A stretch of DNA of 64,000 bases from Candidatus Babelota bacterium (GCA_018266085.1 JAFEAZ010000008.1:3278-67277), one strand, 5' to 3'; counted from the stretch's first letter, positions 4,894-59,094 are shown. Numbers and translations are program-made. The notes: generated from the sequence alone by a model not told the origin.

Positions 4894-5946
4894 CTATTGA
4901 ATGGATCTTGTAGAAGGATTTTGAAATGTCATTCTTTTGTTGCTTTGTAAAAGAAGCGCAGCAAATCCGTGAGCTCCGCTGACAAAGTTATTTAATTGTT
5001 GATTTGTTCTGGTAGAGACATCTAGAAGTCGATCAAGCTTGCCATTAACATCATCGATCTTTCTGGCTTGCTCTGTTGCTACTGATTCCAGTGCAGCGGT
5101 TCTCACAAGGATTTTTTCCAAGACAGATCGAGATTGCTCATTTCTTCCTGCAATATCACTGACCTGCTTTTCTATACTTTGATTCCAAGTGCTAGTTGCT
5201 TTGTCTCGCAGTAATTGCAGTCTTTCTTGCTCTTTTTGTTTTGCTACAATGGTTGCAAGTGATGAGTTAGCGGTAGCGACACCACCGGCCAAGCCATTAA
5301 CTTGAAGTGCAAGCTCATTTACTGAATTCTGGGTTGCTCTGGTAGCAACATCTGTACCTACTGCACTAACGCGTGAGTTTACATCGCTAAACCCTTGGTC
5401 GACTGATGCTTGAGTAGCTCTGGTAGCAACATTTGCTGCGACAGAATCAAGTCTGTTGTTAGCGGCACCGACTTCCTGGCTTAGTTCATCAACCGATGCT
5501 TGAGAAGCTCTGGTATTAACAGCTTCACGTAATTGATTGTCTCTCAGTATGCGTGAACGTTCTCTGAAATAATCAATTCTTTGTTTTCTTCTGTTGCTCA
5601 TTATAAGACGAGTAGCGCAGAACGCAGCAGTAACAGTTGTTCCTATGGCAGTTATGGTCAGTACTGGATGTTGCAGGAAGAATTCCGCAGCAAAACCTCT
5701 ACCAGATTGCACTGTTGGCTGAGCTGGTTGCGGTGCTGGTTGTGAAGGGACAAGATACACAAGTTGTGGTTGGGTGCTTGGTTGTTGCAGAGTGCAAGCA
5801 TTTCCGGGTGGCAGCAAGAGACTGTTTGCAACAGCAGCGCCACTTGTTGCCGCTGTATCGACCGCTTGCAGCATCGGTGCTACGCACAGACAGCATGATA
5901 ACAACACAGTAGTTACATCTATCATTTTGTTGCGTCTAATTTTCAT
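4894..5946 (-). CDS. hypothetical membrane-anchored coiled-coil protein with about 27-aa tandem repeats
   Basis: Start moved to MKIRRNKMIDV (ATG 5946). Signal/TM, Pro/Gln-rich linker, second TM, then repeats NTRASQASVDELSQEV / VATRATQASVDQGFSDV / VATRATQNSVNELALQV. Confidence 0.6.
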   Translation of the reverse strand: MKIRRNKMIDVTTVLLSCCLCVAPMLQAVDTAATSGAAVANSLLLPPGNACTLQQPSTQPQLVYLVPSQPAPQPAQPTVQSGRGFAAEFFLQHPVLTITAIGTTVTAAFCATRLIMSNRRKQRIDYFRERSRILRDNQLREAVNTRASQASVDELSQEVGAANNRLDSVAANVATRATQASVDQGFSDVNSRVSAVGTDVATRATQNSVNELALQVNGLAGGVATANSSLATIVAKQKEQERLQLLRDKATSTWNQSIEKQVSDIAGRNEQSRSVLEKILVRTAALESVATEQARKIDDVNGKLDRLLDVSTRTNQQLNNFVSGAHGFAALLLQSNKRMTFQNPSTRSIQ

Positions 5947-6222
5947 GTGAGATCCTGCATAAATAAAAAAATAGATAAACGAATGGTCTAACATTTTGGT
6001 GTCGGTGTATCAGCTACTTGTGCTTAATGATACATGCAGTATCACGTGAATGTACAGAAAACATGCAGCAGCTGGCACGATTTTTAACAGCATAAAATTC
6101 ATACTGCAACTAAGTGTGACGTGAAAATAAATTAAGACAAGATATTGTGATGATAAAACACATCTAACAAGATGGTAAGAATGCGTTTTTCTCAATCTCG
6201 TCTTTTGTTGTTGTTGTGAGAT

Positions 6223-6247
6223 GGATCCCCGCTTTCGCGAGGATGAC
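6223..6247. repeat. palindromic intergenic element, copy 2 (reverse orientation: ggatccccgctttcgcgaggatgac)
   Basis: Reverse complement matches the GTCATCC-n-GGGGATCC family. Lies just downstream of sufS. Confidence 0.75.
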
Positions 6248-6270
6248 CCGAGGAGGGGCAAATGTCGTAT

Positions 6271-7530
6271 TTAAGGTAGTTTGCTATATAGAGCAGTGTT
6301 TTCTGTCATAAGGCGTGTTAACACAGCTAACAAAAAATCAACTTCGTCTGCAGTGTTGTACCAATAAAAGCTGACACGCACCGATGCAAGAACGCCAAGC
6401 ATTTGTGCAAGCGGTTGAGCACAATGGTGACCGGCGCGTACGCAGATGTTATGCATACTCAAATATGCGGCAACATCATGCGCATGAATGCCTGAACAGA
6501 CAAAACTGACCAAATGGCCACGCGTGCACAGCTCATCGACAGGACCTAAAATCTGTATCCCCGGTATGCGCTGTAATCCATGAATAAGCTGCTTGGTAAG
6601 TGCGGCTTCGTGCGCATGTACCGCTTGTACATCAAGCTGCGTGCTGAAAAAATTGAGCGCAGCAGCAAGCCCAATCGCCTGCGCTACTGGTGGTGTGCCC
6701 GCCTCTAAGCGGTAGGGCATTTCGCGCCATGTGGCAGTTTGATAGGCTGCACTATAAACCATGCCGCCACCCCGTTGATAGGGCTGGAGCTGGTCATGAA
6801 GAGAATGCTTGAGATAGCAGATACCGATGCCGGTGGGCCCCATAATTTTATGGCCAGAAAAGACCAACATATCGCAGTCAAGCTCTTGCACATTAACACC
6901 GCCATGCGGCACCGATTGTGACGCATCGACCAAAATCTTGGCACCAACTTGGTGTGCAAGGTCGGCCAGAGCTTTCACCTCAACGGGTGTGCCCAGCAGG
7001 TTAGAAATATGGCAGAGTGCCACGAGCTTGGTGTGCTTGGTAATGAGCTGTTCGGCTTGCTGCATGTTAAGCGTGCCGTCAGGCAGTATCGGTATAATAA
7101 GTAGCTGTGCACCCGTTTGTGCTGCAATCTGTTGCCACACAAGAAGATTAGCATGATGCTCCAGCGCGCTGATGACGATCGTGTCACCCTGCGCAAGCTG
7201 TGAAGCTGCCCATGCATAGGCGACCATGTTAATAGATTCGGTTGCTCCATGCGTAAAGACGATCTCATCGGCATGCTGTGCACCAAGAAAATGCGCAACG
7301 GTACCACGCGCTGCCTCATAGGCGCTCGTAGCCTGCTCGGCCAGTCTATAAAGACCACGTCCGGTAGTTCCATAGGCGTCAGTATAAAAGCTGCTGATTG
7401 CATCGATAACCGCTTGTGGCTTGTGTGTGGTGGCAGCATTGTCAAGATAGATCAGTGGCTGTCCGTTGTACGGTTTATTGAGCAAGGGAACCATCATACG
7501 CGCTTGTGCAAAAGGATAGGCGTGCTTCAT
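6271..7530 (-). CDS. sufS: cysteine desulfurase SufS (class V aminotransferase)
   Basis: FSGHKIMGPTGIGICYL (PLP-Lys) and RAGHHCAQP (active-site Cys loop). ATGA overlap with the sufD stop. Confidence 0.9.
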   Translation of the reverse strand: MKHAYPFAQARMMVPLLNKPYNGQPLIYLDNAATTHKPQAVIDAISSFYTDAYGTTGRGLYRLAEQATSAYEAARGTVAHFLGAQHADEIVFTHGATESINMVAYAWAASQLAQGDTIVISALEHHANLLVWQQIAAQTGAQLLIIPILPDGTLNMQQAEQLITKHTKLVALCHISNLLGTPVEVKALADLAHQVGAKILVDASQSVPHGGVNVQELDCDMLVFSGHKIMGPTGIGICYLKHSLHDQLQPYQRGGGMVYSAAYQTATWREMPYRLEAGTPPVAQAIGLAAALNFFSTQLDVQAVHAHEAALTKQLIHGLQRIPGIQILGPVDELCTRGHLVSFVCSGIHAHDVAAYLSMHNICVRAGHHCAQPLAQMLGVLASVRVSFYWYNTADEVDFLLAVLTRLMTENTALYSKLP

Positions 7531-8660
7531 GAGCTCTCCTGCAAACGGTGCAACATAGTTTCACATACAGGCTCTAGCATGGCGCATGGGCCTAATGAAG
7601 CAGATAAAAAACCATCTATAAGCATACGGCGTGCCTGCGATTCGGCAATGCCACGGCTGACCAAATAGGCAATTGCATTGACATCGAGTGAGCCTACCGC
7701 GCTGGCATGGACGCAGTGCACGTTGTGAGCGAGTGCTTCGAGCGTTGGTACCGATACTGCGCGTGCCGTATCGCTGACCAGCAGCGTACTGTTGCGTTGT
7801 GCAGCGACGGCATGCTCTGCCGATGTGGCAATATGAATACGCCCTTGGTAATCTGCCGACGCTTGACCAGCTAGGCAGCCATTGAGCTGTATTTCACTGG
7901 TCGTATGAGCAGCTTTATGTACCTGCTCGGCAATAATGTTGAGCTTTGCTGCTTGCCCGAGCGCATAGATGCCGCGCAGGTACGCCTGTGCCTCAGGCTC
8001 TTCAAGCAGCAGATCGAACCAACTATCGTTCTGCAGGCCTGGTTGTATGAGACAGTGCATGTTGAATCTGCTGTGTCCTGCACAGGTGACCAGTTGTGCC
8101 ATTGCCAGCTGCGCCGTGCCTTGTGTGACATGATCTTGTATCACGCTCAGAGTAGCCCGTGTCCCCACGTGATAGGTTGCTGAACGGATGTGCGTGCCTT
8201 GCGTTGCTCGATAGCGGTCAATAATAGTTGCCTGTGCCTGCTTGCCGAGTACAATTTTATATGCTTGGTAGCGATCGATGGCGTCACACGTGTCAAGCAG
8301 GCTGTGCAACGCAATAGGTTCAGCCAAACGCACCTCTGGTGGGATGTATATGACGAGTGTGTGGTTAGCATAGGCGTCGGCATACGCATAGATTTGACGG
8401 TGATTCCATAGCTTTGGCGATCGGTTGAAGATGTAGGTCGCTGCTTCGTGTGGGTACTGCTCAATGAAGCTCTCGAGATCGAGTGCCACTGCGCCACAAC
8501 CGAGCTGCCGCTGCACATGAAATCTACTTGGCGAGCTGGTTGGTATTGGGCGCACAAAAGCAGCTCGACGTGCTTGGTCAGGGTTAGGTGATGGTGTGTA
8601 GCTGCTGTATGCCTGTGCCGCTCGAAGGCGGTAGGTGGCAGCGTTGTGTGGTCCGCTCAT
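7527..8660 (-). CDS. sufD: Fe-S cluster assembly protein SufD
   Basis: Position between sufB and sufS. C-terminal VHASAVGSLDVNAIAYLVSRGIAESQARRMLIDGFL is typical of SufB/D. ATGA overlap with sufB. Confidence 0.85.
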   Translation of the reverse strand: MSGPHNAATYRLRAAQAYSSYTPSPNPDQARRAAFVRPIPTSSPSRFHVQRQLGCGAVALDLESFIEQYPHEAATYIFNRSPKLWNHRQIYAYADAYANHTLVIYIPPEVRLAEPIALHSLLDTCDAIDRYQAYKIVLGKQAQATIIDRYRATQGTHIRSATYHVGTRATLSVIQDHVTQGTAQLAMAQLVTCAGHSRFNMHCLIQPGLQNDSWFDLLLEEPEAQAYLRGIYALGQAAKLNIIAEQVHKAAHTTSEIQLNGCLAGQASADYQGRIHIATSAEHAVAAQRNSTLLVSDTARAVSVPTLEALAHNVHCVHASAVGSLDVNAIAYLVSRGIAESQARRMLIDGFLSASLGPCAMLEPVCETMLHRLQESS

Positions 8661-10048
8661 CCAATAGACCCTTCCATTTCATGGGCAATGAGCCGATTGA
8701 TTTCAACCGCATATTCCATGGGCAGCTCTTTGACAAAATCATTAATAAATCCATTAATAATGAGCGCGCGTGCAGCAGCTTGTGACAAACCACGACTGGC
8801 TAGATAGAGCATCTGTTCGTCACTGATTTTACTTAATGAGGCCTCATGTCCTACATCCACTGGGTGTTGTTCTATGGTTAGCGTAGGGTAGGTATCTGAA
8901 CGGGATGCTGCATCGAGCAGTAATGCATCACATTGAACACGAGCACGCACGTTACGCGCACCTTTGATAACTTTCAGCAGCCCGCGATAACTTGAGCGGC
9001 CACCATCTTTGCTGATCGATTTCGACAGGATGGTTGAGGTGGTGTTGGGAGCGCAATGAATCATTTTGCCGCCAGCATCTTGATGTTGCCCTTTGCCAGC
9101 AACGGCAATCGACAGAATATGGCCATGAGCACCAGGCTCTTTAAGAATAATGGCAGGGTATTTCATGGTGATTTTGCTGCCAAAATTGCCATCAATCCAT
9201 TCAACCGTTGCATTTTTGTAAGCAAGAGCCCGCTTGGTTACTAAGTTGTATACGTTGTTGGACCAGTTTTGAATGGTTGTGTAGCGCAGCCGCGACCCTG
9301 GGCGAGCGACCAACTCTACCACGGCGCTATGCAATGAATTTTTACGATACACAGGTGCGCTGCAGCCTTCGACATAATGCACGCTGCTGTTATCGTCGGC
9401 AATAATCAACGTGCGCTCAAACTGGCCCATCTGTGCAACGCTCATAGCAAAATATGCTTGTAGCGGCATCGTGACCTCGATTCCCTTGGGGATATAGATA
9501 AATGAGCCACCGCTCCATACTGCCGTATTGAGTGCTGCAAATTTATTGTCATGAGCGGGCACGATGGTGCCAAAATATTCTTTAAAAAGATCCGGATATT
9601 CAGATAACCCTTGCGTCATGTCACAGAAGATCACGCCAAGATCGGCCCATTTTTTACGCAGACTTTTGTAGATAACTTCCGACTCCATCTGTGCGCCAAC
9701 ACCGGCTAAAAACTGCCGTTCTGCTTGAGGTATGCCAAGCTTTTCGAAAGTAGTTTTAATGGTGGTAGGCACATCGTCCCATGAGGTCTGTTGTGCCGCG
9801 AGTGGTTTGACATAATAGAAAATGTCATAGGGGTCGAGCTGGCTCAGATCGGCACCCCAGGTAGGCATGGGCATCGCTTCAAAGCGGGCTAATGCTGCCA
9901 GGCGTATGTCGATCATCCAGTCCGGTTCATTTTTCTGCTCAGCAATCTGCAGTACAATTTTCCTGTTGAGCCCTTTTTGCGTGGCAAAATGGTAATCGCT
10001 TCGTTTCTGACGGGTATTCTTTTCAGCTGTTGTGGGTAAAGGCATCAT
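8657..10048 (-). CDS. sufB: Fe-S cluster assembly protein SufB
   Basis: Highly conserved SufB blocks (FIYIPKGIEVTMPLQAYF, HYVEGCSAP, GHEASLSKISDEQMLYLASRGL). Start is ambiguous (10048, 10045 or 10081). Confidence 0.9.
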   Translation of the reverse strand: MMPLPTTAEKNTRQKRSDYHFATQKGLNRKIVLQIAEQKNEPDWMIDIRLAALARFEAMPMPTWGADLSQLDPYDIFYYVKPLAAQQTSWDDVPTTIKTTFEKLGIPQAERQFLAGVGAQMESEVIYKSLRKKWADLGVIFCDMTQGLSEYPDLFKEYFGTIVPAHDNKFAALNTAVWSGGSFIYIPKGIEVTMPLQAYFAMSVAQMGQFERTLIIADDNSSVHYVEGCSAPVYRKNSLHSAVVELVARPGSRLRYTTIQNWSNNVYNLVTKRALAYKNATVEWIDGNFGSKITMKYPAIILKEPGAHGHILSIAVAGKGQHQDAGGKMIHCAPNTTSTILSKSISKDGGRSSYRGLLKVIKGARNVRARVQCDALLLDAASRSDTYPTLTIEQHPVDVGHEASLSKISDEQMLYLASRGLSQAAARALIINGFINDFVKELPMEYAVEINRLIAHEMEGSIG

Positions 10049-22595: not shown

Positions 22596-22672
22596 TGGTA
22601 GCGGCGCAGGGACTCGAACCCCGGACCTACGGATTATGATTCCGCCGCTCTAACCAGCTGAGCTACGCCGCC
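22596..22672 (-). tRNA. tRNA with anticodon CAT (elongator Met or lysidine-Ile2; not distinguishable by eye), encoded CCA
   Basis: Manual cloverleaf: GGCGGCG/TA/GCTC-AGCTGGTTA-GAGC/G/GCGGA-ATCATAA-TCCGT/AGGTC/CGGGG-TTCGAGT-CCCTG/CGCCGCT-A-CCA. Confidence 0.85.
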
Positions 22673-24364: not shown

Positions 24365-24451
24365 TGGTGCCGAGGAGGGGACTCGAACCCCTACAGGATT
24401 TCTCCCACAGCCACCTCAAGGCTGCGTGTATACCAGTTTCACCACCTCGGC
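24365..24451 (-). tRNA. tRNA-Leu(GAG), long variable arm, encoded CCA
   Basis: Manual fold: GCCGAGG acceptor, anticodon stem CAGCC/GGCTG with loop TTGAGGT, variable arm, T-arm AGGGG-TTCGAGT-CCCCT, then CCTCGGC-A-CCA. Confidence 0.85.
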
Positions 24452-41013: not shown

Positions 41014-41165
41014 ATGACTTTTGGCCGTTTGGATCTCTTCGGATACTATGTCAATCTTGATTCGACGGTAGCGCAATCATCAGAGGTAGTATTTGGTTTG
41101 ATCACGTCATGTGGCGTGCTCTCTCTTCGAAGAGCTCTATTTTTAACAAAAAAGGGGTTTTCTCA

Positions 41166-42341
41166 ATGTTGGTACAAAGACCTTTTTGGAAACAATTAAT
41201 TGAAAACGCCTGGCAAGAGAAAAGTATCATCTGGCTAATGGGGTTAAGGCGGATCGGCAAAACCAGTTTGTGCCATAGCTTTGAAGGTATCGAATATCTT
41301 GATTGTGAGCGTCCTCGGGTGCGCCAGTTGATGGCTGATCCTGAAGGCTTTTTGGAGTCAAAAAAAGGCGCTTTGTTAGCGCTTGATGAGATTCATCGCC
41401 TTGATAACCCTTCGGAGTTGTTAAAGTTGGCGGCAGATCATTATCCCTCTATTAAGATTATTGCAACGGGATCGTCAACCTTAGGCGCAAGTGCCAAGTT
41501 TAAAGATACGCTTACCGGAAGAAAGCGTGAGATTTGGTTGACGCCGTTATTGTTGCAAGAGATAGAAGATTTTGGCAATCCCGATATTCGCCATAGATTT
41601 TTATTTGGTGGTCTCCCGTCATTTTTTGCAAGAAAGCAGATATCGGAAATCGATTTTCAAGAGTGGATCGATGCGTATTGGGCAAAGGATATACAGGATC
41701 TGTTCAGTGTTGGCAAAAGAAGCTCCTTTCAGAAGTTTGCTGAACTATTGCTTGCGCATAGTGGCGGTATGTTCGAAGCAGCTAAGTTTGCCATTCCGTG
41801 CGAAGTGACAAGGCCAACCATTGCCAACTATTTACATGTGCTTGAAGAAACATTTGTTGTGCATGTTATTAGGCCCTATTCTACCCATCGGACCACTGAA
41901 ATCGTTATGGCACCAAAAGTCTACGGTTTTGATACTGGCTTCATCTGTTATGTAAAAGGGCGCAAAGAGTTACGTGCTGAAGATATGGGCTTTATGTGGG
42001 AGCATTGCGTTTTAAATGAAATACAAGGGCATTTGCAGACGCGGGCAATCAATTATTGGCGCGATAAGCAAGGGCATGAGATCGACTTTGTCCTTAATCG
42101 TCGTTCAGAAAATGGGCTTGTCGCTATAGAATGTAAGTTTAATACCGTTCTTGAGGATATAACGTCGACAAAGCTTGCTGGCTTGGGTAAAAACTTCCAA
42201 GCTTTTCGTGATCTGTATCCCAATGGCTGCAACTTTATAGTTTCGCATAATGTTGATACCCCATTCATGAAAAAGCATCAAGACTTGGATATCTGGTTTG
42301 TTAATCCAAAAGATTTGATTAAAAAATTGCAGGAGAAATAA
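41166..42341 (+). CDS. AAA-family ATPase with a DUF4143-type C-terminal domain
   Basis: MLVQRPFWKQL..., Walker A GLRRIGKTS, Walker B LLALDEIH. C-terminal ...INYWRDKQGHEIDFVL is typical of the AAA_14/DUF4143 family. Confidence 0.7.
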   Translation: MLVQRPFWKQLIENAWQEKSIIWLMGLRRIGKTSLCHSFEGIEYLDCERPRVRQLMADPEGFLESKKGALLALDEIHRLDNPSELLKLAADHYPSIKIIATGSSTLGASAKFKDTLTGRKREIWLTPLLLQEIEDFGNPDIRHRFLFGGLPSFFARKQISEIDFQEWIDAYWAKDIQDLFSVGKRSSFQKFAELLLAHSGGMFEAAKFAIPCEVTRPTIANYLHVLEETFVVHVIRPYSTHRTTEIVMAPKVYGFDTGFICYVKGRKELRAEDMGFMWEHCVLNEIQGHLQTRAINYWRDKQGHEIDFVLNRRSENGLVAIECKFNTVLEDITSTKLAGLGKNFQAFRDLYPNGCNFIVSHNVDTPFMKKHQDLDIWFVNPKDLIKKLQEK

Positions 42342-43523: not shown

Positions 43524-44756
43524 ATGACCAAGTTATTACAGTCGACAACAGTTTCTACCGGGCTAGCGATCTTTTCTATGCTCTTTGGAGCCGGGAACCT
43601 TATGTATCCTCTCCAAGTTGGTATGACGTCGGGCGATAAGATAATCTGGGGTATTGGGTGTTTTATTTTAACTGCGGTTATTCTACCTGTGATGGGCTTT
43701 GTGGGTATGATTCTCTTTAATGGTGATTATCAGAGCTTCTTCTATCGCCTTGGCAGACCGGTCGGATCGGCTGCAATCTTTTTATGTATGCTTGTTATAG
43801 GCCCTTTGATTGCCATTCCGCGTATTACCACCTTGTCTCACACGATGATTGCGCCATTTTTAGCAGGCACACCACTTGGCACGATCACCTATTTCTCTTC
43901 ATGCATCTTTGCTTTGCTGTTCTTAGGTATAACCTTTTTAGTTACCTACCGTGAAAATCGCATCATGAGCATATTGGGAACTATCATTAGCCCATTGCTC
44001 TTACTTTCGCTGGCAATTATCATCATCAAGGGTTTGCTGTTCCATGATGGTATAACCCATACTGATGCATCGATTTTATGCGTTTGTAAGACGAATTTTA
44101 TGTTAGGGTATGAGACCTTAGATTTGGTTGGTGCGTTATTTTTGTCATCGATCGTTTTAGGGTTGATAAAAACGAATGTTGATGCAGCTATCGCCAACAA
44201 TCCACGGTTATTGGCCTATGTAGCGCTTAAAGCAAGTATGATAGGCGTTGGCCTGTTATCGCTGGTATATGTTGGTATGGCGCTGTTGGGTATGTATCAT
44301 GGTTATGGTCTTGAGCATATCAACGCTGGTGAGCTTTTTAGAGCAATATCACACAGAGTCTTGGGAACGTCTGGTGCGATTGTTATCGCAACGGCAGTAC
44401 TGATGGCCTGTTTGTCAACCGCTATAGCGCTCAGCGCAGTGGTTGCTGAATATCTGCAAAAAGAGCTGTTCAACAAACGCATTAGCTTTATTACAGCACT
44501 TATTATGGTATTAGTTGCTTCGTTGCCTTTGTCGATTGCAGGGCTTACTGCAGTACTCAAACTGACTGGTGGCCTTATCACTTATATTGGGTACCCGGTG
44601 CTCATCGTGCTGACGATGGTGAACGTGTTATACAAGCTTTTTGGTTTTCGTTGGGCAAAGCTACCGGTTGCACTTACCTTTGTAGTGGTCGTTTTGTTCC
44701 ATCCTGACATGCAGGAGCATGTGCAGCGTATTATACAGGGTTTTTGCAGCGCATAA
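43524..44756 (+). CDS. brnQ: branched-chain amino acid transport system II carrier (LIVCS family)
   Basis: GLAIFSMLFGAGNLMYPLQVG signature and 12 predicted TMs. Confidence 0.85.
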   Translation: MTKLLQSTTVSTGLAIFSMLFGAGNLMYPLQVGMTSGDKIIWGIGCFILTAVILPVMGFVGMILFNGDYQSFFYRLGRPVGSAAIFLCMLVIGPLIAIPRITTLSHTMIAPFLAGTPLGTITYFSSCIFALLFLGITFLVTYRENRIMSILGTIISPLLLLSLAIIIIKGLLFHDGITHTDASILCVCKTNFMLGYETLDLVGALFLSSIVLGLIKTNVDAAIANNPRLLAYVALKASMIGVGLLSLVYVGMALLGMYHGYGLEHINAGELFRAISHRVLGTSGAIVIATAVLMACLSTAIALSAVVAEYLQKELFNKRISFITALIMVLVASLPLSIAGLTAVLKLTGGLITYIGYPVLIVLTMVNVLYKLFGFRWAKLPVALTFVVVVLFHPDMQEHVQRIIQGFCSA

Positions 44757-47187: not shown

Positions 47188-47619
47188 TTAGTAACACAAT
47201 GCTTCAAATTCTTTGAGCTCTGCTTTGATCTGCAGCAACTCACGGTTGAGCCTGTTGCTTTCATCACAAGCCTTTTCGTACCGTTTTTTTAATGAGATCA
47301 GAGCGTCTCGTTTAGTCATAAGCGCAGTTTTTGATGCGCCTGCTAGCCCTTGCTCATCAGCAATCCATGCACGCATTGTTGTAGTGATGCTTTTTTGTGC
47401 GTCAAGTAATGCATGTGTGCACGTATCAAGGAGTCGGTGTAAACAGCTCTGTGATAGCTCGAGCATATCGGCCATAAGAGTGGCACATTCCTCTTTGAGT
47501 GTGGCAGTTGATGCGGTGCGTTGCTTGCGTGGTTTTACGAGCGATTCATCAGATGTGCGTATGGCGCTACTGACGGTGATGAGTAACAATGCACCAAAAA
47601 GGGGATAGTTTTTTTTCAT
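47188..47619 (-). CDS. hypothetical secreted coiled-coil protein
   Basis: MKKNYPLFGALLLITVSSA signal peptide. ATGA overlap with the stop of the upstream phosphatidyltransferase gene. Confidence 0.5.
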   Translation of the reverse strand: MKKNYPLFGALLLITVSSAIRTSDESLVKPRKQRTASTATLKEECATLMADMLELSQSCLHRLLDTCTHALLDAQKSITTTMRAWIADEQGLAGASKTALMTKRDALISLKKRYEKACDESNRLNRELLQIKAELKEFEALCY

Positions 47620-48218
47620 AGGGTAGCCCGTCTGTTGTGGTTCTTTTGTTGATACCATGTCGATACATAATGAAGATAGGAGCCTATCGTCATGAAGCTA
47701 GTGCCATAGAGCATCACGTAGTACGCAGTTCCCAGCGAGTGGTTGCACCAATAGCTGGTCACGAGCAACATAACGAACAGCACTTGAGCAACGGTTGTCA
47801 GCTTCGCTAGCCGCGTCGGTGCTATTGTTACCGAGCCATACCACAGATAGAGAAGCATAACGGAGCTCACCAAAAGCAGCTCTTTGCTCACCATAAGCCA
47901 CACAAACCATGCAGGAATAACAGGAGAAAGCTGTTCAGTGCGTGATAACTCTGCTACGCTGGAGATAATGAGCAGTTTGTCGGCGATCGGATCCAAGCAT
48001 GCGCCAAAGACTGTTTTTTCATTACGCAGACGGGCAAGCATGCCATCAAGAACATCAGTAATTGCCGCTACACCAAACAATATAAGGACCTGTCCCCACG
48101 ATTCAGCAGCAATTGCTGTTACCACACATGGTACCAATGCAATACGCATAAAGGTGATGCAAGTAGAGAGCGTTAAGATGCGCTCTAAGCGAGGCTGTAC
48201 GAAAGATGGTCTGCTCAT
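47616..48218 (-). CDS. CDP-alcohol phosphatidyltransferase family protein (second paralog)
   Basis: DVLDGMLARLRNEKTVFGACLDPIADK motif. Confidence 0.75.
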   Translation of the reverse strand: MSRPSFVQPRLERILTLSTCITFMRIALVPCVVTAIAAESWGQVLILFGVAAITDVLDGMLARLRNEKTVFGACLDPIADKLLIISSVAELSRTEQLSPVIPAWFVWLMVSKELLLVSSVMLLYLWYGSVTIAPTRLAKLTTVAQVLFVMLLVTSYWCNHSLGTAYYVMLYGTSFMTIGSYLHYVSTWYQQKNHNRRATL

Positions 48219-51068: not shown

Positions 51069-53384
51069 TCACGAAGATGTCCCCGCTTGAGCGGGGATCT
51101 TTTCTATTAACGGTTGAACCTCTGGGATGGTATCATTGGCAGTAGGCGCAGCTGGAATGCTGTCTAGTCTTTTCTCTATCCAATCGGATGATTCATCCGT
51201 TACAAGCCAGAGAGATTCGGCAAGAGAGCGCGTCTTTGGGTTAAAGGTGAAGAATAGCCCTTTGAGTGAATAATGACGTAAAGATTCCAGAGCGCTCATG
51301 ATACTTTCTCTGGTAAATGGTACGTTCAGTTTTTGTGCTACATCAAAAAAGAGGCTCATTCCAATATAGGATTCGAAAGAGAACCTATCATAGCTTTTTT
51401 TTATGTTATCCATCGCTTTGCGATATTCTCGTGCTATGGGCAGCTCACTATTTAACGGATTGGGAACGGGAGAGCCACATATAAAACGTAACCCATTTGC
51501 TTCGATGAAATATTGGAACGGCTTTTCAGCGATGAATGAAATAGCAAAGAAATATTTGTTTACGCATTGTTCGATTCCCATCTGCAAGATAAGAAGGCGT
51601 CCTGCTTGTGCCGTTGAGAAAAAGCCTATAGCATCGGGCTGGTAACTTCGTATCTCTTTCACTTGTTGTTCAAAATTGACTGTGCCGCGCGTGTAGGCAA
51701 GATCTATCCATGAAGTACCTTCTCTTTTTTTCAACTCAGCATGCGCTGCTTCAGCTGCTCCTATGCCATACGAATCATTTTGGTAAAAAAAGGCAAATTT
51801 TTTAGCTCCTATTGTAGTCGTTAGATATTCGAGTAAAAAGTAGATTTCTTCATCATAGGTTGGGCGTAGATGCATGATACCAGGCGCTGTAGAGGTGCGA
51901 AAAATAGAAGCTCCGGTTATCGGGAAAAATACTGAGATGGTATTATTTTTTACATAATCAAAATAGAGACTTAAGGTAGGACTTCCGACAGGAAATAATA
52001 TCAGATCTATCGATTCTTTGATGAGCTTTTGGATGTTTTGTAATGCCATATTAGGTGAATAATCATCATTATAGATATTGCTCTTAACAAGTCTACCTTG
52101 TATGCCTCCACTGTTGTTTTCAGCGTTAATACGGTTCATCATTCCCTGTTTTATTTCGTTGCCAATATGTGGCACGCCACTGATAAGCGACATTGTAGAG
52201 CCAATATTGATAGGATTAGTTAACGGCGTTTCGTTACGTGTGCCGACGGTAGTCGTTCCTGTCATCAGATTAAAAGTAGCTTTTGTTGCAAAATCCATTG
52301 AGTTTTCATTTCGCTGCCAAAATGATATAAGGCTTGTTCTCAACGATTTTTTGAGCGTTATTAAGGTATATGAATCTATGGCGCTCGTTACATCGGGCGA
52401 ATCGTTAGGAAAAATTGCAGGTAAGATGTTCCAATAAGAGGTCTCTAGATTATGCTCTACAAATGAGAGACCGAATATGCCAGCAGGTTCGAGATAGAGA
52501 TTGTCACTATTGATATCTACTCTCAGTGTGATCGGCTTGGTGCTCTCGTTTGCTTGTTCTTGGTTGAAAAAAACCAAAGGCTCTTTATTGTCTGTATTGA
52601 AAAGCTCATGGATGTGCGCTTCATCCATAATATCACCTTCGTCGAAGTTGGAGGATATTTTCATAAAATCTTGCGGTTGAGAGCTGATAGCAATATAGAT
52701 CGCTTTTGGCAACGAGCTGAAAAAAGTATTGAGCTCTTTTCTAAGTTCAACCACATCAAAGCTCTGCGCGCGCGTCTTTATCTCTCGATTCAAAGCGAAA
52801 TCGTTCCAATAGTTGTTGAGCTCCTGTCGAGAGCGGATCATAAAACAGTTGTCTGGATTGAGATCTAAAAGTGCCATTATAAGAGTGAGTGTTTCTAGGG
52901 CATAGGCCGATCCATTAATCGAGTAAGCATTGAACAACAGATAGATATCTTTGCGTAGTTTCAGCCTTTCATCGATTAACCCTTCTTTATTAAGCCATGT
53001 TAAGGTGCGTACGAGTCTATGGAAATGGCCACGCAAGCTACTGATAAGAATGATTGAACTATTTTCATTACATTGCAGACGAGAGGCGATCGTATTGATT
53101 TGACGATTAGCCTTTTTTGCTTCGATCGTCTTTTCGAGTAACTCCTTGAAATAACCGATTGTAAAGAAGTCGTGGAATCGATAGCCCCACGAGTCGAGCC
53201 AAGCGATAAAGGTATTGGGTAGATGTTTGTTATGAAATAAAGTGAAATCGGTGTTGCCCCACACTTTTGTTGCAGGCGGGTATTCTGGCATCTTCGCTGC
53301 ATAATCGGTCACCGTTTTTAACGTTATAGCATTGTTAAAGGTTCCTGTCAGCAAGCAACAAACAAGTAATGATCTTTTTTTCAT
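51069..53384 (-). CDS. secreted two-domain protein: degenerate PPP-type metallophosphatase-like domain plus type-1 periplasmic binding (LivK/ANF-receptor-like) domain
   Basis: Signal peptide MKKRSLLVCCLLTGTFNNA. PPP-like blocks carry substituted metal ligands (ILISSLRGHF, YLLFNAYSINGS, FMIRSRQE). The C-terminal half has PBP1 blocks (INIGSTMSLISGVPHIGNEIKQGMMNRINAENNSGGIQGRLV..., KFAFFYQNDSYGIG). Confidence 0.65.
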   Translation of the reverse strand: MKKRSLLVCCLLTGTFNNAITLKTVTDYAAKMPEYPPATKVWGNTDFTLFHNKHLPNTFIAWLDSWGYRFHDFFTIGYFKELLEKTIEAKKANRQINTIASRLQCNENSSIILISSLRGHFHRLVRTLTWLNKEGLIDERLKLRKDIYLLFNAYSINGSAYALETLTLIMALLDLNPDNCFMIRSRQELNNYWNDFALNREIKTRAQSFDVVELRKELNTFFSSLPKAIYIAISSQPQDFMKISSNFDEGDIMDEAHIHELFNTDNKEPLVFFNQEQANESTKPITLRVDINSDNLYLEPAGIFGLSFVEHNLETSYWNILPAIFPNDSPDVTSAIDSYTLITLKKSLRTSLISFWQRNENSMDFATKATFNLMTGTTTVGTRNETPLTNPINIGSTMSLISGVPHIGNEIKQGMMNRINAENNSGGIQGRLVKSNIYNDDYSPNMALQNIQKLIKESIDLILFPVGSPTLSLYFDYVKNNTISVFFPITGASIFRTSTAPGIMHLRPTYDEEIYFLLEYLTTTIGAKKFAFFYQNDSYGIGAAEAAHAELKKREGTSWIDLAYTRGTVNFEQQVKEIRSYQPDAIGFFSTAQAGRLLILQMGIEQCVNKYFFAISFIAEKPFQYFIEANGLRFICGSPVPNPLNSELPIAREYRKAMDNIKKSYDRFSFESYIGMSLFFDVAQKLNVPFTRESIMSALESLRHYSLKGLFFTFNPKTRSLAESLWLVTDESSDWIEKRLDSIPAAPTANDTIPEVQPLIEKIPAQAGTSS
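51076..51099. repeat. palindromic element, copy 6 (gatgtccccgcttgagcggggatc), overlapping the 3' end of the 771-aa CDS
   Basis: Stem TCCCCGC/GCGGGGA. The minus-strand frame through it encodes the protein C-terminus ...IPAQAGTSS. Confidence 0.75.
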
Positions 53385-53404
53385 TTGAGCACCTATTCCT
53401 CTTT

Positions 53405-54439
53405 TTAAATAACGAAATAGATGTTGAGCATAATAATCAGAAGATGCAACACGACGATGAAAGTTTTTCGATACAAAAGCCCTATGCCTTGTGAGAATTC
53501 ATCAAGCAGCAGAAACACGAAAGCAATAAAAATCGCAGCTAAGAAAATAAAGAACAGGTAATCTGAAAGCATAAAATAGCCTACCGCTGGCGAAAGCCTA
53601 TCGATAATGAAGCGGAAACTGATTAAAGCGGTAAGACCTACCGTTGGCAAGTAAAATTGGGAAGAGCTGCTGGTTGAAAAACCGAATAAAGAAAGATAGA
53701 AGAAGGTCAGCATAGGGAAAATGATCGATATAATGTAGCGATAGCTTGTTCTTGTGAAATCGATAAAGAAATCAATACAGGGGTCATAATTAGAGCGTTC
53801 ATGATCGGTATGTTCTACGGAATCGAAAGAAATCTTTCGGTACCCATAACGAACATATCTGTCGAGCATAGTCCAGCCGAAAGGTTGCGCATTGGCAGTA
53901 ATGTTAAAGTACCGATGCTCTGATACGAAGATTATCTCTTCAGGATCTAAGAAGATGTTGGTGAGTCTCAGGGTGACTCGATGCTCATCTAAAGGGAAAT
54001 AGGTATATGATAAAGGAGTTGAGAATTGAAGTCGTATACGATATTGTACCAACAGTTTTTTTTTCTCTAAAGAGATGATCGGTTCAGAAACGGACAATAA
54101 AGTGCCTCGTTGAAAGCTGAACTTATTCAACCTTTCGAGGTTGATAATGCTTGGGTCTGCAAGAAACCATAATGTGCCGACAATAACAAAATTATTGTTG
54201 ATAACATCGAATGTTTCATACTGTTCAATGGCAAGCCCGGTGAGAATCTTTGTATAGAAATCGCCAAATCTGGCCAGTGATATAGGATTATAGTCATTCA
54301 AAATTTCAATAGGATCTACCGGATCAAAGTTGCGGAGCTTATGGAGATAGATACCGGACAAGATGGTAATACTCAGAGCAATAAGCACGAGCTGGAACGG
54401 TATAGATACAAACAGTTGCGGTTTTTTTGATGCTGACAT
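53405..54439 (-). CDS. prokaryotic pentameric ligand-gated ion channel (Cys-loop receptor family) homologue
   Basis: YFPLDEHRVTLRL (F/Y-P-x-D loop without cysteines). M1 YRYIISIIFPMLTFFYLS. M2-M3 LSPAVGYFMLSDYLF. Four C-terminal TMs with a short M3-M4 loop. N-terminal signal anchor. Confidence 0.7.
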   Translation of the reverse strand: MSASKKPQLFVSIPFQLVLIALSITILSGIYLHKLRNFDPVDPIEILNDYNPISLARFGDFYTKILTGLAIEQYETFDVINNNFVIVGTLWFLADPSIINLERLNKFSFQRGTLLSVSEPIISLEKKKLLVQYRIRLQFSTPLSYTYFPLDEHRVTLRLTNIFLDPEEIIFVSEHRYFNITANAQPFGWTMLDRYVRYGYRKISFDSVEHTDHERSNYDPCIDFFIDFTRTSYRYIISIIFPMLTFFYLSLFGFSTSSSSQFYLPTVGLTALISFRFIIDRLSPAVGYFMLSDYLFFIFLAAIFIAFVFLLLDEFSQGIGLLYRKTFIVVLHLLIIMLNIYFVI

Positions 54440-54652
54440 GATTACAGACCTTTTTTTGAGTCGCTTATGAGTATAGTTATCTACTTACCATGTGCAAAAC
54501 AGGCTTGTCAATGATAATGGTGGCAGCGTAAGTGTCATGTCAAAATGAGCCATAGATGAACTCCTAGAGTGCTCGTTTCTTGAGAAATTCTCACGCTTTG
54601 TTACTGTAATAAAAAGCACGTATATCCTTTTTAACGCTAACAAAGGTTTTTT

Positions 54653-57388: not shown

Positions 57389-57862
57389 ATGATACGCGCA
57401 CGCTCTAACAAACTAGCTTTGTACCTACTTTTGGCAGCAACCTGTTTTGGTCAACTATCGGCTCAGACTCCGCGCTGTACCAGCGATTGGCTAAAAGGGA
57501 AAAATGGTTTAATTTTGGCCCTCGCTGCAGTCTGTACAGCAGGCTTGGTGGCAAAACCGACAAAGGGCGACCATGCACTTTCACCAGAGCTCTTTTTTAA
57601 AGATCCAGCTACCTGGTGCAGAAATGCATTTGGCTGGCGCTCTAAAGCTCCAAAGATTAAATCTATTGATGAAGAAACCGGGCTACCAATCTACAAAGCA
57701 GGGTATGATGGACAAGGCTTTTTAGGTTCTGTGGAAGAACTAGGCAAAGCATTGGCCCCCTTTGCAGGGTTGGCGTTTTTTACGAAGGCGCTTGATCCGC
57801 TCTGCTGGACCTTTGGTACCGTGAAAGATGCTCTTGTGCAAGATGGAGCGATTGTTGCATAA
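57389..57862 (+). CDS. hypothetical secreted protein
   Basis: Signal peptide MIRARSNKLALYLLLAATCFGQLSA. No recognisable domain. Confidence 0.5.
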   Translation: MIRARSNKLALYLLLAATCFGQLSAQTPRCTSDWLKGKNGLILALAAVCTAGLVAKPTKGDHALSPELFFKDPATWCRNAFGWRSKAPKIKSIDEETGLPIYKAGYDGQGFLGSVEELGKALAPFAGLAFFTKALDPLCWTFGTVKDALVQDGAIVA

Positions 57863-58775: not shown

Positions 58776-58852
58776 GCGCCCGTAGCTCAACTGGATAGAG
58801 TATCAGACTTCGAATCTGAGGGTTGCAGGTTCGACCCCTGCCGGGCGCACCA
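58776..58852 (+). tRNA. tRNA-Arg(TCG), encoded CCA
   Basis: GCGCCCG/TA/GCTC-AACTGGATA-GAGT/A/TCAGA-CTTCGAA-TCTGA/GGGTT/GCAGG-TTCGACC-CCTGC/CGGGCGC-A-CCA. Confidence 0.85.
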
Positions 58853-58944: not shown

Positions 58945-59001
58945 CGGGCGCGGCCAGTCAAATGAGTGATTTCTTAAAATATTTTAGATTCGTAACATTT
59001 T

Positions 59002-59075
59002 GTGCCCGTAGCTCAGGTGGATAGAGCGGTAGATTCCTAATCTGCAGGCCACTGGTTCGAGTCCAGTCGGGCACA
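59002..59075 (+). tRNA. tRNA-Arg(CCT), no encoded CCA
   Basis: GTGCCCG/TA/GCTC-AGGTGGATA-GAGC/G/GTAGA-TTCCTAA-TCTGC/AGGCC/ACTGG-TTCGAGT-CCAGT/CGGGCAC-A. Confidence 0.85.
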
Positions 59076-59094
59076 ATAAGTTATATTAAATTGT

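Follow-up and report, generated by a model that had tools for sequence, protein, structure and literature searches.

A phosphatase-fold periplasmic binding protein encoded next to a divergent pentameric ligand-gated ion channel in Candidatus Babelota

A binding-protein-type sensor coupled to a bacterial pentameric ligand-gated ion channel (pLGIC) was described by Tasneem, Iyer, Jakobsson and Aravind (2005; PMC549065), who reported a type I periplasmic binding protein (PBP-I) domain at the channel N-terminus in some alpha-proteobacteria, and stand-alone PBP-II or Cache proteins encoded in conserved pLGIC operons. A sensing role was proposed for these PBP-type partners, and the word 'phosphatase' has no occurrence in that paper. 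Knowledge of the ligands of bacterial pLGICs and of the functions of their extra domains is sparse, the only such accessory domain characterised structurally being the N-terminal domain (NTD) of DeCLIC, a Desulfofustis pLGIC with NTD1 and NTD2 lobes (PMC12664993). Here we analyse a 64,000-nucleotide stretch of DNA from Candidatus Babelota bacterium (GCA_018266085.1 JAFEAZ010000008.1:3278-67277; the window), in which a gene at 51069-53384 on the minus strand encodes a 771-aa protein that joins a domain with the fold of PPP phosphatases to a type-1 PBP domain, and follows directly on the gene for a divergent pLGIC.

An original prediction, made from the sequence alone, took this protein for a possible periplasmic ligand sensor or accessory subunit of the channel. 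Comparative genomics now supports that idea well, because the two genes are adjacent in 44 of 49 loci as against none of 28 controls and because single-chain fusions occur naturally; physical association and an effect on gating we infer. We consider it reasonably probable that the 771-aa protein senses ligands in the periplasm as an accessory subunit of the channel, and that the pseudo-phosphatase acts as an adaptor. In this model the protein would be exported to the periplasm, where its LivK-type domain would bind a small-molecule ligand, an amino-acid-like metabolite being the likeliest, and the PPP-derived domain, as a structural adaptor, would attach the sensor to the channel on its periplasmic side. 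Closure of the PBP upon ligand binding might then be relayed to gating, or the ligand might be handed to the channel ectodomain. The PBP fusions that the original prediction cited from the 2005 work do exist, although there it is PBP-I that is fused, at the N-terminus, and PBP-II or Cache proteins that are the operonic partners.

The channel gene and the fusion gene

The upstream gene (53405..54439, minus strand) encodes a 344-aa protein deposited as 'hypothetical' (MBS1986584.1) that is clearly a pLGIC by profile and by fold, and for which a pentameric assembly and gated conduction are predicted. A transmembrane (TM) or signal-anchor helix at residues 13-36 is followed by a beta-sandwich ectodomain and by TM helices at 234-255, 260-282, 291-315 and 321-343, the chain ending with M4. 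The first two residues of its Pro-loop motif, FPLDEH (F148-P149-x-D-x-H153), do not vary in the family alignment, nor does P242 in M1. With phmmer an ELIC-GLIC chimera is matched in the PDB (1.5e-5), and a profile built from 39 sequences of the channel family matches GLIC (5e-13) over a stretch that begins at the Pro-loop and includes M4. The AlphaFold2 model (pLDDT 87.1) shows the beta-sandwich, four TM helices and N-terminal anchor helix, and Foldseek relates it to GLIC (6e-16, TM-score 0.68-0.72) and also to sTeLIC, GluCl and GABA-A.

No Pfam model, Neur_chan_LBD and Neur_chan_memb included, matches this channel, and the NCBIfam LIC/LGIC_1 models reach E~0.08 (11.6-12.2 bits, below cutoffs of 280-500). 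All 24 database homologs of the channel are named 'hypothetical' and none of the 24 has a precomputed Pfam domain. The clade as a whole (53405-54439 and its homologs P0157-P0183) is invisible to both Pfam and NCBIfam, so that Pfam-based surveys of prokaryotic pLGICs would miss it.

The two genes lie on the same strand, as expected from the operonic arrangement originally proposed, with a spacer of 20 nt (53385..53404) between the channel stop codon and the ATG of the fusion gene, by direct reading of the sequence. A Shine-Dalgarno-like AAGAGGA is found in the spacer (53403-53397, minus strand), which at this length has no space for a terminator or promoter, and no terminator-like site was detected between the two genes. 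A candidate promoter for the operon is a sigma-70-like match, TTGACA-18-CATTAT (54514..54543, minus strand; 10/12 in a consensus scan), situated in the 213 nt that separate the divergent grpE from the channel gene, where the number of sigma-70-like sites does not exceed that expected from shuffled sequence.

The 771-aa protein, deposited as 'ABC transporter substrate-binding protein' (MBS1986583.1), has four parts, all read from the minus strand. Its N-terminus, MKKRSLLVCCLLTGTF, is hydrophobic and signal-like, in keeping with the signal peptide that had been claimed; the segment itself, MKKRSLLVCCLLTGTFNNA (residues 1-19, 53328..53384), has a Kyte-Doolittle 12-mer maximum of 2.05 at residue 5, and suggests that the protein is exported to the periplasm. 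A lipoprotein reading of this N-terminus was rejected, as LLVCC lacks a proper lipobox, in which a small residue is needed at -1. The second part is the PPP-phosphatase-fold pseudo-enzyme domain (residues ~20-382, 52239..53327), hereafter the N-domain, assigned from AlphaFold2, Foldseek and a family profile. The third is the type-1 PBP domain of LivK/LIVBP-like kind (residues 391-730, 51195..52214), and the last a Pro/Ala/Thr-rich low-complexity tail (residues 731-771 with the stop codon, 51069..51194) that falls outside the PBP envelope of the hidden Markov model (HMM).

The type-1 identity of the PBP domain, which had been described as LivK/ANF-receptor-type, is certain, because Peripla_BP_6 (PF13458) matches residues 391-728 with an E-value of 2.7e-31 and a score of 109.9 bits, above the cutoff of 31.7, over profile positions 1-336 of 343 and thus the whole domain, and weaker Pfam matches to ANF_receptor and Peripla_BP_5 fall in the same C-terminal domain. 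Against the PDB, the family profile matches 4kv7 (6e-50), 3lop (5e-39) and LivJ (4e-21). A low-complexity tail is seen also in locus L080 (6001-7689), where the last ~140 aa consist of Q/P-rich tandem repeats (QPQIQQPVLRQAQDERS...); such tails, that of the 771-aa protein included, are possibly tethers or spacers.

Linkage and fusion of the two genes across genomes

Genome scanning provides further insights into the relationship between the two genes. One genome per species was taken, and the resulting 75 loci were annotated with three separate domain HMMs. A channel gene is adjacent in 44 of the 49 loci that encode an N-domain, whereas none is found at 28 control loci with a related PBP alone. 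Conservation of the pair elsewhere, on which the proposed partnership depends, is thus evident. Three of the five N-domain loci that lack a channel lie at contig edges, with less than 100 nt of upstream sequence. The channel gene is usually situated directly upstream, separated by a gap of no more than 44 nt or overlapping (44 of 46), and it is followed by one to four tandem genes for N-domain plus PBP. Apart from the channel, no flanking gene family recurs in more than 6 of the 49 loci, the flanks being varied housekeeping genes. The genes around 27 of the PBP-only control loci do not resemble classic Liv operons.

Three different architectures are observed. In the first, that of the window, the channel gene is followed by a gene for N-domain plus PBP. 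In the second, PBP, channel and N-domain are encoded in that order by separate genes (L003, L005, L080 and L081); these split-type N-domains carry GNxQG at motif I, and split-type members such as P0030 match Pfam Metallophos over nearly their full length (4.8e-12 for P0030). In the third, channel, N-domain and PBP form a single chain (two copies in L020, and L023), an arrangement present also in the independently called database proteins P0079, P0082 and P0146. Here the N-domain begins 6-30 aa past M4, which stands in for the signal peptide, and every fused member has the channel first, then the PPP-like domain and then the PBP, so that the added domains are C-terminal to M4. The C-terminus of a pLGIC is extracellular by the established topology of the superfamily, and fusion after M4 therefore gives the PPP-like domain, and the PBP with it, a periplasmic location. 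This agrees with hydropathy plots of the unfused N-domain proteins, 124 of 143 of which have a signal-like segment. No system of channel plus PBP without an N-domain was found among the HMM-annotated loci, L003, L080 and L081 encoding theirs separately. In a neighbour-joining tree of the channels (without support values) the true split-type channels form one clade and the triple fusions appear at two separate places, which hints at independent fusions.

These patterns bear directly on a simpler account, in which the 771-aa protein is the binding protein of an ABC transporter for branched-chain or other amino acids, its N-terminal extension irrelevant and the channel next to it by coincidental synteny. 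The deposited name says as much, LIV-binding proteins are the nearest relatives of the PBP domain, and a gene for a BrnQ-type carrier (Branch_AA_trans, 1.5e-56) lies at 43524-44756 on the plus strand of the window, ~6 kb from the pair, and again in the syntenic locus L001 (362-1585, ~5 kb away). However, no ABC permease or ATPase gene adjoins the pair in the window, L001, L003 or L079, the neighbourhoods with Pfam annotation, and no ABC-type family recurs in the flanks of the 49 loci. Coincidence would moreover have to account for a channel that accompanies the N-domain in unrelated contexts and never the plain PBPs, and for a PBP joined covalently to the channel in the triple fusions, so that we regard the transporter explanation as improbable. 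The BrnQ-type carrier is not seen in more distant loci; its proximity could be a hint at the class of ligand, or plain synteny.

Several loci depart from the simple arrangement. Giant family members carry one phosphatase-like domain followed by tandem PBPs (P0010, 3020 aa; P0128, 2274 aa; P0067, encoded at L007 2629-8259, 1876 aa), with 4, 5 or 7 PBP domains; among family members with more than one PBP the repeats number 2-7, P0010 being the extreme. In L007, two channel paralogs (941-2614 and 8280-9959) have an extra N-terminal region of ~215 aa with no Pfam match, and both precede N-domain proteins whose PBP repeats number three or four. The split operons of L080 and L081 are followed by a large gene (7822-9912 and 7638-9998; 696 and 786 aa) with no Pfam domains, the two products being homologous (2.6e-205), and in L003 an unrelated signal-peptide protein of 477 aa (5450-6883) occupies that position. 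The gene after the split operons is a possible fourth component. One metagenome-assembled genome (MAG), CAYJDW01, holds at least eight loci of the family (L032, L033, L038, L042, L045, L047, L050 and L051).

The phosphatase fold and its lost catalytic site

The relationship of the N-domain to phosphatases is not apparent from the protein itself. Neither Pfam nor NCBIfam matches residues 1-387, Metallophos (PF00149) giving nothing even at E<=1; the N-domain alone finds a marginal match among PDB sequences, to a PP1-like phosphatase (E=1.1, residues 145-207), and a word-indexed homolog search with it found nothing. The likeness to PPPs is therefore visible at the level of the family or of the structure only. 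Relatives were gathered by searching 1.84 billion cluster representatives exhaustively with HMMER, which gave 773 with E<=1e-3, of which 462 reach E<=1e-10 (clusters at 50% identity). Peripla_BP_6 is present in all 35 of those sampled and Pfam Metallophos in 24 of the 35 (best 4.2e-12). Homology to PPPs is thus transitive and not direct, since the query has no Metallophos match whereas its homologs and the family profile do match.

The family profile, searched against the PDB, has PP5 as its best match (3.4e-9) and also matches PP2A-C, rdgC, BSU1, PP1 and calcineurin, all 60 of the matches listed being eukaryotic-type PPPs. Profile and PP5 pair through the diagnostic motifs, GdlqG with GDTHG and NGnvIdrs with NGDFVDRG for motifs I and II, rGkhE with RGNHE for motif III, and FFntLPlalY with VFEWLPLAQC for the strand that follows. 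This puts the motifs at residues identical to those of the block-by-block alignment (~110-240) offered by the original prediction. With hhalign the N-domain family aligns to PP1alpha at 95.9% probability, the PP1alpha sequence serving for motif placement only; that alignment is reliable up to the LPLA/HGG region, the C-terminal half not being alignable by sequence. The AlphaFold2 model of the N-domain has a pLDDT of 90.3 and a pTM of 0.91, and its top 50 Foldseek matches in the PDB are all PPP phosphatases (PP5, PP1, PP2A and calcineurin; E 3e-10 to 1e-8, prob 1.00, target-normalised TM-scores of 0.54-0.60). Judged from the model, the N-domain has the alpha-beta-beta-alpha metallophosphoesterase sandwich of the PPPs, and the placement of this domain in the calcineurin-like/PPP fold is upheld by profile and structure alike.

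So consistent a likeness to eukaryotic enzymes might suggest that the protein is secreted or surface-exposed and interacts with the host, the PPP fold acting as decoy or binder for host proteins and the protein being no channel subunit at all. Dependentiae are parasites of protists, and expansion of tandem arrays, with up to seven PBP repeats, is typical of host-interface proteins. Nevertheless in the triple fusions these domains are joined to M4 of a channel in the inner membrane, operon coupling to the channel is near-universal, and no secretion-system genes recur in the flanks of the 49 loci; we consider this the most improbable of the explanations discussed here.

The three motifs are all degenerate (minus-strand coordinates throughout). 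Motif I (residues 115-119, 53028..53042), aligned through the profile to PP5, reads SSLRG for GDxHG; motif II (residues 152-159, 52908..52931) reads NAYSINGS for (N/L)GDxVDRG; and motif III (residues 184-188, 52821..52835) reads RSRQE for RGNHE, Glu alone being kept. In PP1, Asp64, His66 and Asn124 are metal ligands, Asp92 is the bridging ligand and His125 the general acid. Using PP1 numbering, D64 and H66 are replaced by S116 and R118, D92, D95 and R96 by Y154, N157 and G158, and N124 and H125 by R186 and Q187, with E188 retained. The equivalent of His173 is by alignment S245, in a column that is His in 62% of motif-intact and 14% of degenerate members. The dead-site assignment covers motifs I-III and His173, the His248 column lying outside the reliable alignment. 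Replacement of the metal and catalytic ligands, as had been proposed, is thus borne out at each of the motif I-III ligands and, by alignment, at His173, and none of the five equivalents of D64, H66, D92, N124 and H125 is kept. Read from this alignment, the N-domain of the 771-aa protein is a pseudo-enzyme that would have no metal or catalytic site.

Across the family the picture is more varied. At motif I the family columns hold G in 128, D in 92 and H in 55 of 150 members, and E188 is conserved in 149 of the 150. Among 223 N-domains, all five residues are kept in 14, four in 39, three in 52, two in 48, one in 41 and none in 29, the query being among the last; all five are therefore found in ~6% and at least four in 24%, and catalysis appears possible for this minority with intact motifs. 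The 771-aa protein is no isolated case and belongs to a large and variably degenerate family that, by the labels of its members, is mainly one of Dependentiae, the window too belonging to a MAG of Candidatus Dependentiae. Related or near-identical copies are found in MAGs labelled Epsilonproteobacteria/Campylobacterota, Pseudomonadota, Myxococcales or Alphaproteobacteria, such labels occurring in the cluster of the query protein and at loci L005, L018, L020, L023 and L031-L034; at least the copy with >=90% identity is probably in a mislabelled Dependentiae bin, whereas the hosts of the triple fusions may be true Alphaproteobacteria, perhaps endosymbionts.

The intact members raise the possibility of a working periplasmic phosphatase with a non-canonical site, which would free a metabolite from a phosphorylated precursor for capture by the PBP, either to scavenge nutrients or to generate a signal. 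In addition to the members with four or five canonical residues and the nearly complete Metallophos match of the split-type P0030, the near-invariant H122, N176 and E188 could in principle form an alternative site. In the query, however, the ligands are now S, R, Y, R, Q and S, with which PPP-type dinuclear coordination is impossible, the pattern of replacement is stable across its clade, and 170 of the 223 members keep three or fewer of the five residues. For the 771-aa protein a catalytic role is therefore very unlikely in our view.

The dead signature is common to the orthologs L001, L037, P0001 and P0002, which are 37-80% identical to the query, and this argues that catalysis was lost long ago and that the domain has been retained since. 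Those columns that vary together with the integrity of the motifs coincide exactly with the catalytic positions of PPPs. A second set, of ~25 family-specific positions, which includes E34, H122, S123, R126, N176, P177 and E188 as well as W193, F221/F222, P226, G305, W318 and D337, is conserved whatever the catalytic state, which argues for a shared role other than catalysis.

It might equally be supposed that the N-domain is a functionless relic, a decayed enzyme that serves as a spacer, and that the PBP alone is functional. Catalytic residues are entirely lost, and N-domains of the query clade have diverged more rapidly than its PBPs (37% identity against 57%, and 27% against 47%). Yet the N-domain is still predicted with very high confidence, its conserved positions are kept irrespective of catalytic state, and it is present in every system found, the split loci L003, L080 and L081 devoting a separate gene to it. 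Channel identity also tracks that of the N-domain at least as well as that of the PBP in a mirror-tree comparison (rho of 0.42 and 0.34), which is weak evidence. On balance we hold a mere spacer to be improbable, to much the same degree as the transporter explanation. All four of these alternatives are less likely for the 771-aa protein than a sensor or accessory subunit of the channel.

There are, notwithstanding, several observations that weigh against an accessory subunit. Two loci, L047 and L050, lack a channel despite ~9.9 kb of upstream sequence; they are the only well-flanked loci without one, and as both are from the MAG CAYJDW01 this suggests orphan copies in a highly expanded genome. 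The significance of the linkage is overstated by its Fisher test (p=3e-16), because the loci are not phylogenetically independent. Mirror-tree correlations are weak (channel and N-domain 0.42, channel and PBP 0.34, N-domain and PBP 0.09), and pairing of paralogs in L026 and L035 gave at best a weak signal of co-evolution. The faster divergence of the N-domain could reflect relaxed constraint in place of a conserved interface, and those members with four or five canonical residues might work by catalysis and not as scaffolds. Finally, contact between channel and partner is deduced from gene linkage and fusions, and binding of a ligand in the inter-lobe cleft of the PBP is predicted from the domain family.

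The system in its setting and among known receptors

Other features of the window lie apart from this pair of genes. Two tRNA genes on the plus strand, for Arg-TCG (58776-58852) and Arg-CCT (59001-59076), are ~150 nt apart, and two more on the minus strand specify Met-CAT (22596-22672) and Leu-GAG (24365-24451). Open reading frames of ~156 aa at 47188-47658 (minus strand) and 57389-57862 (plus strand) have hydrophobic N-termini and no Pfam match, and are unrelated to the channel and fusion system. A DUF4143/AAA_14 ATPase gene (1.6e-31 and 1.2e-19) is located at 41109-42341 on the plus strand; such ATPases are often found in mobile or defence-related contexts.

Beyond the single protein, we tentatively suggest, with less confidence than we attach to the accessory subunit, that the family represents a previously unrecognised class of modular receptor-channel. 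Such a receptor would combine a cryptic pLGIC, a PPP-derived coupling adaptor and one to seven LIVBP-type domains that gate or tune it on host metabolites, and would be the main route of host sensing, expanded in Dependentiae and in a few other presumed intracellular bacteria. If so, this would be the first case of a pLGIC whose extracellular sensor is C-terminal, and the first in which a phosphatase fold has been co-opted as an accessory scaffold for a channel. With 773 clusters in uncultured, genome-reduced parasites, the family is probably central to how these organisms read their hosts. It also bears on annotation, since hundreds of entries under the name 'ABC transporter substrate-binding protein', and as many hundreds of channels entered as 'hypothetical', are wrongly annotated or lack annotation. 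The existence of split, two-gene and single-chain versions is of practical use, as the single chains are constructs of fixed stoichiometry for cryo-EM or electrophysiology.

We found no earlier description of a channel/PPP-like/PBP system in the literature, and the novelty originally claimed for a pseudo-phosphatase plus PBP partner acting in trans stands to that extent. The pLGIC survey of Jaiteh (2016), the TM6 genomics of Yeoh (2016) and the account of bacterial eukaryote-like PPPs by Kerk (2021) make no mention of it, and we found no literature that links Dependentiae to ligand-gated channels, or metallophosphatases to pLGICs.

The eukaryotic PPPs (PP5, PP1, PP2A and calcineurin) resemble the N-domain in fold and in how motifs I-III and the LPLA strand are ordered and spaced, notwithstanding an identity of 12-15% and the replacement of the tested catalytic and metal residues in the query. 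Those enzymes are cytosolic, whereas the query domain is placed in the periplasm and is fused to a PBP. A protein-phosphatase fold would thus have been reused as a non-catalytic periplasmic module, and a sensor situated past M4 widens the design space of the pLGIC superfamily.

As a ligand sensor, the type-1 PBP fold links the 771-aa protein to the LivJ/LivK proteins of the HAAT family and to the LIVBP-like amino-terminal domains of ionotropic and metabotropic glutamate receptors (iGluR, mGluR) and ANF receptors. It differs from LivJ/LivK in that no ABC importer partner is encoded in its neighbourhood, and from the LIVBP-like domains of iGluRs and G-protein-coupled receptors in being coupled to a pLGIC instead of an iGluR pore or such a receptor. 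The design of a sensor mounted on a channel nonetheless parallels that of the eukaryotic glutamate receptors. DeCLIC is also a bacterial pLGIC with a large extra modulatory module on the periplasmic side, but its NTD is N-terminal, beta-rich, Ca2+-binding and part of the same chain, whereas here the module is a PPP fold plus PBP attached C-terminally or supplied in trans.

The closest parallel remains the pLGICs of Tasneem et al. (2005), and because PBP fusions and operons were described there, a binding-protein sensor for a pLGIC is a known theme. In both cases a PBP-type sensor is coupled to a bacterial pLGIC in trans and by fusion, small-molecule sensing for the channel is proposed, and the PBP protein is encoded in a conserved operon, here at 44 of 49 loci and mostly with gaps of no more than 44 nt. 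The present system differs in that the sensor is linked through a PPP-phosphatase-fold domain, in that it follows M4 or acts in trans whereas the earlier fusions are N-terminal to the ectodomain, in having one to seven PBP-I repeats, and in a channel clade that is too divergent for Pfam models and is hosted mainly by Dependentiae. What appears to be new is therefore the PPP-fold adaptor, the attachment after M4 or in trans, the arrays of PBPs, the unannotated channel clade and its expansion in Dependentiae.

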